IMG/VR virus record: IMGVR_UViG_3300046492_000369 | Location: 13,042-77,041 of that record | Length of the DNA stretch: 64,000 bases | Direction: 5' to 3' (one strand) | Source: a virus | Part shown: piece by piece, positions 10,992 to 21,806 of the stretch | How positions within the stretch are numbered: position 1 is the first letter of the stretch | Layout of the letters: every line of letters begins with the position of its first letter | The notes under the pieces: generated by a model | Database searches by the model: none | Seen by the model: the letters and a program-made list of their open reading frames with translations, nothing else | What the model was told of the DNA's origin: nothing | Position numbers and translations under genes: made by a program

Positions 10992-11192
10992 TTAGTTGGG
11001 TGCCCCCTTGGCTTGCCTCTGGGAGCGGAGTCGATCGGCAGCCTGCACGATCAAGCTGATCAGTGCACGCATCTTGTAGGTACTGCCTTCTGAGCTGTTG
11101 GCTAAAGCCAACTGCTGTCCATAGATCCGGGCCAGACTGTCCAGCTCATCGAAGGTCAGTCCGCAATCATCCATGCTGGATTGGTTGGTCAT
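10992..11192 (-). CDS. Hypothetical protein
   Basis: 4-bp overlap with the upstream gene. Confidence 0.6.
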   Translation of the reverse strand: MTNQSSMDDCGLTFDELDSLARIYGQQLALANSSEGSTYKMRALISLIVQAADRLRSQRQAKGAPN

Positions 11193-11383
11193 TGTTTCCT
11201 CGCGTATTGCATATCCTGCAGGTGATGCAGTGTGACCAGCAGCACCTTACGGGTAATTTCAAATGCAGAGCCAAGTTTTCTCAGACTTTCTATCGCTTCC
11301 TGATAGTCCTTGATGCCCTGCTCCAGCTCATCGTTGGTGATGCTTCCACCATCACAGCATTTACGATAGAGATCACGACTCAC
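11189..11383 (-). CDS. Hypothetical protein
   Basis: 4-bp overlaps on both sides. Confidence 0.6.
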   Translation of the reverse strand: MSRDLYRKCCDGGSITNDELEQGIKDYQEAIESLRKLGSAFEITRKVLLVTLHHLQDMQYARKQ

Positions 11384-11769
11384 AGCAGCCCCTCCGGTAT
11401 GTCGACTTCATCGCCCAACTTGCTGGCGATTAGGCAGCGCATGGCGGCGATCAGGGGCGTTTGGCCGTGGATATTGCGGCTACTATCCTTCGACGCCAGC
11501 CATAGCTCTTCGTAGTGGTCACCCTTCTCGTTCCCTTTTGGGAAGTACAGGTCATTACCACGAAGTACATTAATGCGCTCGCGCTCGATGATCGGACCGC
11601 CCTGTGCCCAGTTGGTGGAATGGGACTGCTGCCACAATCCCGCCTCCCATACCGGATTGGGGAACAACGAGCCGTCATCGTTACGCATCAACGTGGTGTT
11701 CTTCCCCTCGCACTTTGCCACCGCCCAGTCAAGGGCAGCGCCGATTAATTCGCTGGTTTTGATCATCAT
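11380..11769 (-). CDS. NinX/DUF2591-family protein
   Basis: LIGAALDWAVA...STNWAQGGPIIERE...GQTPLIAAMRC..ASKLG signature. Confidence 0.8.
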   Translation of the reverse strand: MMIKTSELIGAALDWAVAKCEGKNTTLMRNDDGSLFPNPVWEAGLWQQSHSTNWAQGGPIIERERINVLRGNDLYFPKGNEKGDHYEELWLASKDSSRNIHGQTPLIAAMRCLIASKLGDEVDIPEGLL

Positions 11770-18225: not shown

Positions 18226-20172
18226 TTAAAACAAGGCTTCAGCATGCATACCCAACCACTTCTGCATGTCTGCATCGTTGACCAGCTCTTTGTTGCGACC
18301 CAGCACCATCCTTACGCACACCACTTGGAATTCCAGTGGCAGGCGCTTGATGTACTTCATCAGTGGGTTGATGTTCACCTTGTTGATCTTGTCCGCAATG
18401 CTACCGGACAGAGCAAACAGGATGCTTGGCTCACCTGGTACCTGGATCGATTCAGGATTGGCCATGATCTCGGCTACCGTGGGCAACTGGTCGAAGATCT
18501 TGCAGTAGCTGAGAAATTCCCGTGCCACGCCTTCGGACAGGGTACCAGCCAACAGCGGCAGCATGTCGGCGTCGTTGGCGTCCATGATCTTCAGGAAGCT
18601 ATCCGCAAATTCCCATGTCCGTGGCGAAGCATAGGTACGATCCGAGTGGTCTGGCTTGAAGGTGTACAACAACGTAGGTCGGAACTCCATGAAGCTGATG
18701 ATGCGGTGGTCAAGACCAGTAGCAGACGCCCACTGTACCCATTCAACAGGATTAACCACCATTTCCATGTGCACGATACGCGACTGCAGTGCAGTGCTCA
18801 TCTGCTCGACGATGGCTCCATCGGTTTCTAGGTTACCAGCACAGACTACCGCCACATTCTTATGCAGGTTGTACTTGCCCACCATCCGATCGAGCACGAC
18901 CTTGTAAGACGCGGCTTGAACGGCGACCGAAGCACTGTTGAACTCATCCAGGAACAGCAACCAACCATTATAAGCTTGGCCATTTTCTGGATTAATAGGT
19001 AATGAGTCACCTTCAATAGGAAAAGTGTCCATTGGCAAATACCCGGCACGATTACCTTGTATATTAGGAAATCCGAGGATATCTGTAGGGTCACATTGAG
19101 AAAGACGTAAATCAATCAATTTAAGATTATATTCACGCGCTATTTGATGCACGATTCCTGACTTACCCTTGGTATTCAAGAGAGTACGTTACCCCCCTCT
19201 CCGCTATTAAGCTGCTCATGCTTTCGCATGAGAATAGACTATATCTTCATCTTATACTGACATGGCCGACACATAATGTTGGTCTGTCTCAGCGTCGAAG
19301 AATCAGTTCTGCATACAAGTTTTGTAGGGCAATTAGAGCAATAAAATTCTACAAAATTACGTGGATTTTCATTGATCACTCGAATAAAATTCAAGCCTAA
19401 TTTTTCCCTGAAAAATTTCTCTGTTACAGCAAACTTGGCAGCACTTGCTGCTTTACTGGCATTCAGATAGGGTGTTTTACCCATACTAATCGCGTGTAAT
19501 TGATTTCCTGATTTTGTAGTCCATTCCAGATTGTCTTTCCAATCATGGCCAGGAACCAAATCCTTGTGATTTACTTCCACATCATCTGGTCCTTTGACCA
19601 GATAAATTTCAGCAACCATTCGGTGTACAAAAAATCGTTCAGTTTTACCTTGTATTGACAGAGTAACCCGACGATAGCCTTTTGGCATTACATCGGCTTT
19701 TAGTGCAGTACTTTTTCCTTTTCGATATACATTCCCATCTTCTGATACCAGATAAGGCGTATTTCTGAATTGACGCATATTTTACCTTTTAAGGAGAACC
19801 ACATACATGGTAGACCTGTTGAGGTAAAAAGTAAAGAGCTTCCCATTTCCACCCACTTGGGTGTACGGCTTTCGCCTAGTCGTTGAACGTTCACCTATAC
19901 GGTGCTTCGCTGCTGATTGCCCAATTCTCATACTTTTCAAGCCTTGGCTTTGTCTTTCGACGCGCAGTGGCAATGAGACTATCAGGAGTTTCCAGCAATT
20001 AGAGAAGTTTGTTTTGACACCTCACGGTGAAAGCTATCTAGTAGAGTCAAATAGCTGGTGAGCCATGAATCATGGCCACACGCTTAGCCTTGATGCAGGC
20101 CGTGACCATGCGGATGGCCTGACTGATGGTGACTTTCAGGGTCTGTTGTACTTCGTTGTCGTTCTTTGCCAT
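18226..20172 (-). CDS. MoxR-like AAA+ ATPase (N4 gp24-like), spliced: exon 1 20172-20050, exon 2 19167-18226 (354 aa)
   Basis: Exon 1 ends ...MIHGSPAI and exon 2 begins GKSGIVH, which restores Walker A GSPAIGKS. Also LFLDEFN (Walker B), AGN and SPRTW. Confidence 0.92.
19168..20049 (-). mobile_element. Group I self-splicing intron (882 nt)
   Basis: P1: exon GCUAUU pairs with IGS GAUAGC (20038-20033), U-G at the 5' splice site. P AAUUGCUGGAAA; Q AAUCAGCAG; R GUUCAACGACUAG; S AAGAUAUAGUCU (P7 GACUA/UAGUC); P3 CUUCUC/GGGAAG; terminal G at 19168. Confidence 0.93.
19239..19778 (-). CDS. Intron-encoded HNH homing endonuclease (I-HmuI-like) with C-terminal CxxC/CxxC
   Basis: YLVSEDGNV...GYRRV.L...VHRMVAE...VNHKD......NLEW.T...N..H. 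AT-rich; the stop codon lies in the intron S element. Confidence 0.88.
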   Translation of the reverse strand: MRQFRNTPYLVSEDGNVYRKGKSTALKADVMPKGYRRVTLSIQGKTERFFVHRMVAEIYLVKGPDDVEVNHKDLVPGHDWKDNLEWTTKSGNQLHAISMGKTPYLNASKAASAAKFAVTEKFFREKLGLNFIRVINENPRNFVEFYCSNCPTKLVCRTDSSTLRQTNIMCRPCQYKMKI

Positions 20173-20840: not shown

Positions 20841-21012
20841 ATTTTTCTCTCTCTGAAGTGGGAAGCACCAACGCCAGCATGGTGTTGTGCTTACGTTGTA
20901 GTTTGATGAGCCTGCGCAGCTCACTGCTGGGAGTGTTCTTCACACCCCGTTTTTGAAGGAATGAGATCCGTTGATTAACCTCAACCGGTGTGAATGCCTT
21001 CACACCTTTCAT
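20827..21012 (-). CDS. Small basic hypothetical protein
   Basis: 4-bp overlap with the upstream ATPase gene. Confidence 0.5.
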   Translation of the reverse strand: MKGVKAFTPVEVNQRISFLQKRGVKNTPSSELRRLIKLQRKHNTMLALVLPTSEREKYGRR

Positions 21013-21806
21013 GGCATGGCCAGAGTTTTCTGGAAAGTTGTCTTAGCTACTTCTTTAGGCTTGAGACCACCTTCAATAAAGTACTGATGCAGCAGAGTGT
21101 TGATCATGCGTACACCAATGGTGTTCTTCTCGTGGTTTTCGGTCAAAACCTTCATGATGGACGTAACTACCAGATCTTTGCTGACAGTAGGAATCAGAGT
21201 CAGATAATGGGCCAGTAGTTTGCTGTTCTCCAGAATATTCTGCATCTGTTCAAGGCTGACTTTATCCATTCCATAAGCCAAGCCAACACGACCAAGAAAT
21301 TCTGTCTTCAAACCGAATTCACGCAGCCTGTCGATCGTAATGTTCTCTTCACCATTGAAAGCACCAGCAAAGATGAATAAGACATTATCTGTCTTGATGT
21401 TATGGTACTTGCCGTAGTCAGCCGAGATGTTGGCCAGTCCTTCAAGCGCTTTCAGGAACTCATTCTGCACGCCATTGGTGGTTTCATGGGCCAATGCGGA
21501 GTTGGAGTTGCCACTGATGAACAGCTTGTCAAACTCATCAACGAAGCACACCACTGGACGGCCACCATACTGCACCAATGGAGCCAGTGCCTTGGACAGG
21601 GAATTGCCTGCGGTGCCTTCCTTGGTCAAGCCAGCCGCATTGATCTCAACCATGGGGAGGTCAAGCTCTTCGCACAGCATGCCGATGTTGTGGCTCTTGC
21701 CTGAACCGGAGGGACCGGTGACGATGAAATGCGGACGGATCTCGCCTTCACTGTTGAGGTAGATGTTAAGGATGCGACGGATGCTGTCGATGGACTTCTG
21801 GCTCAC
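21009..21806 (-). CDS. ClpX/HslU-like AAA+ ATPase
   Basis: GPSGSGKS, VDEFDKL, GVQNEFLKALEG, TDNVLFIFAGAF, GLKTEFLGR. Confidence 0.85.
   Translation of the reverse strand: MSQKSIDSIRRILNIYLNSEGEIRPHFIVTGPSGSGKSHNIGMLCEELDLPMVEINAAGLTKEGTAGNSLSKALAPLVQYGGRPVVCFVDEFDKLFISGNSNSALAHETTNGVQNEFLKALEGLANISADYGKYHNIKTDNVLFIFAGAFNGEENITIDRLREFGLKTEFLGRVGLAYGMDKVSLEQMQNILENSKLLAHYLTLIPTVSKDLVVTSIMKVLTENHEKNTIGVRMINTLLHQYFIEGGLKPKEVAKTTFQKTLAMP

Follow-up and report, generated by a model that had tools for sequence, protein, structure and literature searches.

A group I intron with a predicted HNH homing endonuclease in the Walker A motif of a gp24-like ATPase gene from an N4-like phage

In the Vibrio phages JA-1 and VCO139, HNH genes are known to split the homologues of gp24, the DNA polymerase gene and gp43, and were proposed to be elements that "may be carried on an intron" (Fouts et al. 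2013, PMC3670811), and an HNH element was also reported in the 350-amino-acid (aa) ATPase of phages ZC03 and ZC08 (Amgarten et al. 2017, PMC5418858). Group I introns have been published for other genes of N4-like phages (e.g., td of pVa5, PMC5746245), and inteins are known in the P-loops of ATPases (Novikova et al. 2016, PMC4760082). Here, we describe a group I intron with an HNH open reading frame (ORF) that interrupts the Walker A motif (i.e., the P-loop) of an N4 gp24-like AAA+ ATPase gene. Intron and both exons are situated on the minus strand of a 64-kb stretch of DNA (referred to as the window; 64,000 nucleotides (nt) of IMG/VR record IMGVR_UViG_3300046492_000369), to which the coordinates refer. 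The 2013 study of JA-1/VCO139 did not describe the Walker A site or a ribozyme, and a literature search revealed no paper naming either of them in gp24. HNH-split gp24 genes are nonetheless known, and the intron of the window is a further example rather than a new class; the inference in a preliminary description of this DNA that no intron had been described in such an ATPase was too strong in view of the 2013 and 2017 papers and of the joined coding sequence (CDS) annotated in Pseudoalteromonas phage pYD6-A.

The parent record originates from a rhizosphere metagenome, measures 77,041 bp, carries direct terminal repeats and is classed as complete by its completeness estimate. Sequenced phages are only distant kin, with the best nucleotide matches (ca. 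75%) covering the terminase (LUZ7) and the major capsid (Stenotrophomonas phage Piffle). The source virus is an N4-like phage that had not been sequenced before, with a complete genome.

The ATPase gene is encountered in two pieces. As described earlier, a 41-aa ORF (20047–20172, minus strand) ends with GSPAI (i.e., …MIHGSPAI) followed by TGA, and the large ATPase ORF (18226–19179, minus strand) lacks the first half of its P-loop, with GKS appearing directly after a non-homologous TTG start (MNTK). The GKSGIVHQIA frame resumes 882 nt downstream of the 41-codon ORF, and a scripted join of 20172–20050 to 19167–18226 yielded a 354-aa protein with the P-loop GSPAI/GKS, which aligned over its entire length with uninterrupted ATPases, those of Vibrio phages VBP47 and 1.097.O (motif GSPGIGKS). 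No 3′ end other than G19168 (the omega-G) restores both the frame and the P-loop, so that the intron is located between codons five and six of the Walker A motif, and its limits agree exactly with those proposed before (19168–20049). Moreover, the four closest intron-less relatives (L008–L011; 66–68% identity) read MIHGSPAIGKSGIVHQIA, which is precisely the predicted junction, and their proteins (starting with MAKN…) run unbroken through MIHGSPAI/GKSGIVHQIA, letter for letter as predicted.

To place this junction among its homologues, 81 IMG/VR loci encoding ATPase homologues were surveyed, of which 80 were informative and one was cut by a contig end. A contiguous P-loop was present in 79 of these 80 (76 canonical, and three with S or A instead of the second Gly), indicating that ATPases of this kind do not naturally begin at GKS; the sole interrupted locus, L033, is interrupted at the identical place. 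The Rfam group I model (RF00028) matched positions 19215–20061 (minus strand) over its full length (model positions 1–253) with 58.8 bits (gathering score of 50, E-value of 2.3e-12), and this was the only Rfam match within the window. Given this covariance-model E-value, the exact junction match to intron-less homologues and the covariation in five related introns (see below), a chance origin of the group I pattern is excluded. An intein was ruled out as well, since the interruption holds stop codons and an RNA fold, as was a frameshift or assembly error, given the exact in-frame restoration and the five homologous cases.

With regard to the host gene, exon 2 matched the PHROG 1297 "ATPase" profile (E-value of 5e-112) starting from profile position 37, and therefore lacks only the part that exon 1 provides. 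A tblastn search with exon 2 matched 849 phage records. The spliced protein shows full-length homology to N4 gp24-like proteins and a Walker A motif of the GxxxxGKS type, so that this part of the earlier designation "N4 MoxR-like AAA ATPase" stands, while the MoxR label is weakly supported: a Pfam scan of exon 2 alone returned zero matches, the intact homologue of VBP47 passed the threshold for AAA_5 (24.7 bits, cut-off of 22) but not for AAA_3 (21.2 bits, cut-off of 27), and the homologue at L009 gave Pfam matches below threshold only. The best PDB match in the ATPase tests was midasin (E-value of 0.007). The gene product is more safely named "N4 gp24-like AAA+ ATPase".

The ribozyme fold was examined via the RF00028 alignment, duplex energies and RNAalifold, the latter with the 5′ parts of four ATPase introns (from the window, Escherichia phage Pollock, JA-1 and L033; Table 1) and of the Litunavirus RNAP2 intron as input, and with metagenome contig L096 left out. 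The consensus of these five introns contained P1, P2, P3, P4, P5, P5a, P6, P7.1 and P7.2, and compensatory changes on both sides were observed in 24 of its 50 pairs, among them three out of six in P3 and the majority of those in P2 and P5a. P7, P8 and P9 were identified by direct reading of single introns. The R element GTTCAACGACTA is invariant in the five-intron alignment, the S element GATATAGTC was seen in each of the six introns read, and in the RF00028 alignment J8/7-P7 is matched by GAUGAAGAUAUAGUC. Extra P7.1 and P7.2 hairpins between P7 and the 3′ strand of P3 are the criterion for subgroup IA, and the intron, in which both are present, is IA-like. The P1 with its U-G wobble, the P10 with one bulge, P3, P4, P7, the R and S elements and the omega-G, all noted in the preliminary description, were each recovered.

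The two guides match the exons next to them. In P1, the guide GAUAGCU (20032–20038) forms 7 bp with exon sequence AGCUAUU (20050–20056; −7.1 kcal/mol), with a wobble pair at U20050·G, and in P10, the first intron bases UGACUCUACU (20040–20049) form 9 bp with GGUAAGUCA of exon 2 (−7.9 kcal/mol), with one bulged C. The U·G wobble at the splice site recurs in all four aligned ATPase introns and, by duplex inspection, in L096, and the final base of exon 1 is T in all intron-bearing alleles but any base in intron-less ones. Exon 2 starts with GGU AAG UCA in the window, GGA AAA UCA in L096 and GGA AAA AGU in L033, and the introns begin with UGACUCUACU, UGAUUUUAC and UAACUUUUUCU, in the same order. 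In a 5 × 5 matrix of duplex energies, the guides of the window (−7.9 kcal/mol) and L033 (−8.4 kcal/mol) paired by far best with their own exon 2. The P1 guides, like those of P10, track each phage's own exon codons, with the best fit where the exon codons differ, and both P1 and P10 of the window intron pair more weakly with the exons of other phages than with their own. Because this match of guides to own exons and the T at the end of exon 1 would be difficult to account for if P1 and P10 were not in use, we infer that the introns at this site very likely splice. In the predicted reaction, folding of the pre-mRNA would bring the guide into pairing with both exons, namely with the last bases of exon 1 (P1, U20050·G) and the first bases of exon 2 (P10). 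Exogenous guanosine would then attack after U20050 and the freed exon 1 after omega-G19168, and the resulting mRNA would encode the 354-aa ATPase, its P-loop intact.

The ORF within the intron matched the HNH endonuclease family PHROG 59 (E-value of 4e-24), and a profile of its eleven closest family members matched I-HmuI (PDB 1U3E; E-value of 1.7e-13) over residues 8–117. The catalytic residues H52, N70-H71, N83, N92 and H95 are invariant within this family, as are the four Cys of a C-terminal CxxC…CxxC module. By this homology, the 179-aa product is identified as an I-HmuI-like HNH homing endonuclease. I-HmuI itself is encoded in the DNA polymerase intron of SPO1/SP82, which is likewise a phage group I intron with an endonuclease of the same family, but which differs in host gene and phage group; moreover, I-HmuI has a helix-turn-helix where the protein of the window has its Cys4 C-terminal module, with the alignment ending at residue 117. 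A search of a large protein collection retrieved 15 further intact relatives of 50–88% identity from metagenomes, the nearer of which (76–88%) reside on contigs of up to 52 kb, and only one truncated member was seen across the family (50–100% identity). Precomputed matches to Pfam HNH_3 (PF13392) were present for the relatives P0010, P0012, P0013, P0015 and P0016. IMG/VR contained no close relative (best, 43% identity over half its length), and a metagenome scan recovered only L096, whose HNH protein is 59% identical.

The ORF is located in P8 and its TAG stop lies inside the S element, as proposed previously and as confirmed by the RF00028 alignment, in which the 3′ strand of P7 (UAGUC) starts with the three bases of the stop (19239–19241). 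The tail of the protein, YKMKI-stop, is nearly invariant among homologues down to 62% identity, and its codons double as the 3′ strand of P8, J8/7 and the first bases of the 3′ strand of P7, so that one stretch serves both protein and ribozyme. Separately, the bases in front of the HNH start (19776–19790 in the window, about 2990–3003 in L096) read AAAGGUAAA(U/A)UAUG and are conserved between both; they may constitute a weak ribosome-binding site, access to which could depend on the fold around P8. In a mixed infection, the endonuclease would presumably nick intron-less alleles near the P-loop codons, and repair would copy the intron in.

A trace of such an event might be found in exon 2, as the low-GC region of the intron (ca. 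0.40) extends into this exon. GC content at third codon positions (GC3) is 0.66 in exon 1 and 0.69 in the remainder of the gene, but only 0.23 in codons 42–110 of the spliced gene (Fisher p-value of 9e-12), compared to 0.30 in the intron ORF and 0.29 in the ATPase gene of L096, a phage contig of 38% GC in which the same intron and an HNH ORF of the same family occupy this site. At amino-acid level, this AT-rich tract is 0.70–0.77 identical to L008/L009, but third-base identity at identical residues drops to 0.21–0.32 within the tract, compared to 0.54–0.69 outside of it. GC3 and this drop in synonymous identity both indicate donor-type sequence in the exon flanking the insertion site, and no GC3 dip occurs at the corresponding position in the intron-less relatives. 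Homing is known to be accompanied by exon co-conversion, with tracts that are biased and asymmetric, as shown for I-TevI (Edgell et al. 2010, PMC2988022). The best reading is that the ca. 205-nt tract in exon 2 stems from one-sided homing co-conversion, from a low-GC N4-like donor of the same clade. The intron and the tract would then look freshly imported, with the rest of the gene retaining its resident GC3 of ca. 0.68.

Taken together, the gp24-like ATPase gene very probably harbours a group I intron that is functional and mobile, although several observations speak against this. At 58.8 bits, the Rfam score in the window falls short of the 101 bits of the Pollock intron, which lacks an ORF, and among the sequencing runs containing this sequence there was no RNA run, but only a single DNA run from a rhizosphere metagenome (maybe the source), the contigs of which were intron-plus only and lacked an exon–exon joint, so that no homing polymorphism was seen. 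Furthermore, the HNH protein scored below the gathering score of Pfam HNH_3 (PF13392; 18.6 vs. 24.8 bits), blastn of the tract plus the 3′ end of the intron against GenBank phages found no near-identical donor (best match, Pollock with 68%), and L096 matched the tract no better at synonymous sites (0.38).

Since no RNA run contained the sequence, one could also picture an element that has lost splicing, whether as an intron in decay or as a plain endonuclease insertion, leaving the ATPase as a pseudogene or as a protein made in two pieces. The mobE-split nrdA of phage Aeh1 is a precedent for such a gene in pieces, the TTG at 19179 could in principle start a protein from exon 2 only, and GenBank lists the Pollock and JA-1 equivalents as small ORFs and "ATPase" fragments (i.e., the truncated annotation that had been foreseen for this gene). 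Against this, however, all core helices and the invariant R and S elements are intact, and guides that follow their own exon codons make sense only for a P1 and P10 in use. In addition, the two exons have remained open and conserved in a genome that is complete, and the TTG is not preceded by a visible Shine-Dalgarno sequence. Since the P-loop is severed at GSPAI/GKS, moreover, neither half could bind nucleotide, and we consider loss of splicing highly improbable.

The low Pfam score and the failure to see an intron-minus form in the possible source sample would also fit an intron that splices but carries an inactive endonuclease, in a late stage of the homing cycle with vertical inheritance only. 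This seems improbable in turn, as the ORF is intact and its catalytic residues are all conserved throughout a family with a single truncation, while the co-conversion signature implies recent movement. Finally, the intron may be real while the AT-rich stretch is an unrelated recombination patch or reflects local codon usage (e.g., weak mRNA structure near the splice site). Such an origin would agree with the lack of a matching donor, and with a tract protein that is as near to the resident clade as the remaining gene is and that has an LPINPxxG insert in common with L009. It is nevertheless unlikely, because the tract begins right at the intron junction, resembles the intron ORF and its low-GC host L096 in GC3, has no counterpart in intron-less relatives, and displays an asymmetry with the I-TevI precedent. 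Co-conversion of the tract along with a mobile, splicing intron is thus preferred.

Table 1. Coordinates of the intron, its exons and its structural elements in the window, and introns inserted at the same site in other phages
Feature	Coordinates	Strand	Details
Exon 1, N4 gp24-like AAA+ ATPase	20050..20172	-	41 codons, end …HGSPAI; U20050 is the 5′ splice site
Group I intron	19168..20049	-	882 nt; IA-like subgroup with P7.1/P7.2; GC about 0.40
Internal guide	20032..20049	-	P10 strand UGACUCUACU (20040-20049) and P1 strand GAUAGCU (20032-20038)
Ribozyme 5′ core	19838..20029	-	P2 20018-20029; P3 5′ 20002-20007; P4 19992-19997/19911-19916
Ribozyme 5′ core, continued	P5-P5a 19920-19985; P6 19892-19905; P7 5′ 19877-19883; P3 3′ 19839-19844	-	
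P7.1	19867-19876	-	GGCGAAAGCC; compensatory changes
P7.2	19850-19863	-	CACCCAAGUGGGUG; compensatory changes
Intron ORF, predicted 179-aa I-HmuI-like HNH homing endonuclease	19239..19778	-	540 nt; ATG 19776-19778, TAG 19239-19241; in P8 loop
P8 3′ strand, J8/7 and P7 3′ strand	19237..19257	-	GUAUAAGAUGAAGAUAUAGUC; also encodes ORF tail QYKMKI-stop
Intron 3′ end	19168..19232	-	P9 19215-19232 (GAAA loop); P9.1 19203-19212; P9.2 19179-19202; omega-G 19168
Exon 2, same ATPase	18226..19167	-	313 codons and stop; first residues GKSGIVHQIA
AT-rich tract	18961..19167	-	codons 42-110 (ca. 69) of spliced gene; possibly also last ca. 7 exon-1 codons, 20050-20070
Escherichia phage Pollock	NC_027381 about 11154-11543 (L005:1111-1500)		GSPGI/GKS; 390 nt, no ORF, Rfam 101 bits
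Vibrio phage JA-1 (also VCO139, JSF3 by HNH match)			GSPGV/GKS; 940 nt, Rfam 52 bits, HNH ORF in P8
IMG/VR contig L033			GSPGI/GKS; Rfam 74 bits, JA-1-like HNH
Metagenome contig L096 (GC about 38%)			HGSPAI/GKS; HNH 59% identical to that of the window; nucleotide identity 73% over 621 nt

Introns at the same site occur in other phages (Table 1), with homologous 3′ hairpins in Pollock, JA-1 and L096. That of Pollock shares the insertion site, the ribozyme family, and the P9 and 3′ hairpins with the intron of the window (core identity of 73%), but has no endonuclease ORF in its P8 and measures 390 nt in total. In the Pollock record, exon 1 is listed as the 28-aa hypothetical protein gp30 (…KGSPGI) and the "ATPase" gp31 begins just before GKS, with the intron left unannotated, and the DNA polymerase intron is the only one mentioned in the genome paper (PMC4319500). 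The JA-1/VCO139 intron corresponds to that of the window in gene and codon boundary and in its RF00028 match, and its HNH protein in P8 (30–32% identity) has the same CxxC…CxxC tail, with a 3′ end that reaches into GAUAUAGUC. Its core, however, is only 59% identical, and JA-1 has a second interruption of the gene after VQAAA. Removal of the introns renders the gp24-like ATPase whole in the phage described here as well as in Pollock, JA-1/VCO139, L033 and L096, and the pairs annotated as a 28–41-aa "hypothetical protein" and an "ATPase" starting from GKS should become joined CDSs.

Further breaks mark this gene as an insertion hot spot, with at least two sites besides the P-loop. The interruption after VQAAA is found in both Pollock (L005:1746–2594) and JA-1 (L007:2950–3643), each with an HNH ORF, and the Pollock one gave group I Rfam matches below threshold only (33.5 and 28.9 bits). 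In ZC03 (KU356690, L092:1398–3341), the gene is broken after …EPQD, ca. 25 codons past the P-loop, by an ORF annotated as "I-HmuI", with a weak Rfam match (25 bits). At the equivalent place, L017 (2123–3001) has a gap of ca. 877 nt after …DPTD, in which Rfam detected nothing. An insertion of the ZC03/ZC08 HNH element at the Walker A motif itself was ruled out, as the P-loop of both phages is contiguous (SPPGRGKS) and their break follows …EPQD. Finally, the pYD6-A record (L004:1408–3293) gives gp24 as a join of two pieces, with the inner ORF labelled "ATPase", and no group I match to this interruption was obtained from Rfam, even at an E-value of 0.01.

The closest known core, over 170 nt from P3 to its 3′ strand, is that of the intron in the Litunavirus RNAP2 gene (N4 gp16-like; YH6, LP14 and Pa_WF01), with 85% identity to that of the window, compared to 81% for L096 and 59–73% for the other same-site introns. 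Both have the same short P6, P5a, P7.1 and P7.2, but the Litunavirus intron splits the DxxCSG motif of RNAP2, uses other guides, and carries a GIY-YIG ORF after P9 instead of an HNH ORF in P8. In YH6 (L002:2966–3962) and Pa_WF01 (L001), the RNAP2 gene is split after DACCSG by this group I intron (82 bits), which is unannotated in most records but labelled "Intron_gpI" in Pa_WF01. Given 85% core identity despite a different host gene, guides and ORF type, one ribozyme lineage has evidently moved between two essential N4-like genes and gained different endonucleases independently, documenting ectopic movement and modular endonuclease exchange. Introns of phiKZ-like phages are also related, with a core ca. 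81% identical over ca. 108 nt.

For one HNH nickase encoded by an intron in an essential phage gene, PhiPA3 gp210, a competitive benefit has been shown by experiment, as it targets the intron-less allele of a competitor (Birkholz et al. 2024, PMC11620839). The HNH protein of the window is likewise intron-encoded in an essential phage gene, as a presumed nickase of intron-less alleles. By analogy with gp210 against phiKZ, it might serve as an interference weapon among rhizosphere N4-like phages that nicks the P-loop codons of competitors, with the ribozyme lineage retargeting its guide and swapping endonucleases between ATPase and RNAP2; such a weapon would favour the Walker A site, where mutations that allow escape are lethal. 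We put this forward as a speculative possibility that is rather doubtful at present.

The recurrent use of a homing site inside the Walker A motif makes this intron an RNA-level counterpart of P-loop inteins, which splice as protein whereas the intron is predicted to splice as RNA. The footprint of one-sided co-conversion is unusually clear, and would mark the invasion as recent and hint at a low-GC donor. As such, the locus adds a well-resolved example to the present picture of phage introns, which it leaves unchanged. Elsewhere in the window, at 20950–21400, where an Rfam search returned nothing, a second local GC dip (0.43 vs. ca. 0.52) was observed within an ORF (21009–21806) encoding another Walker A protein (GPSGSGKS).

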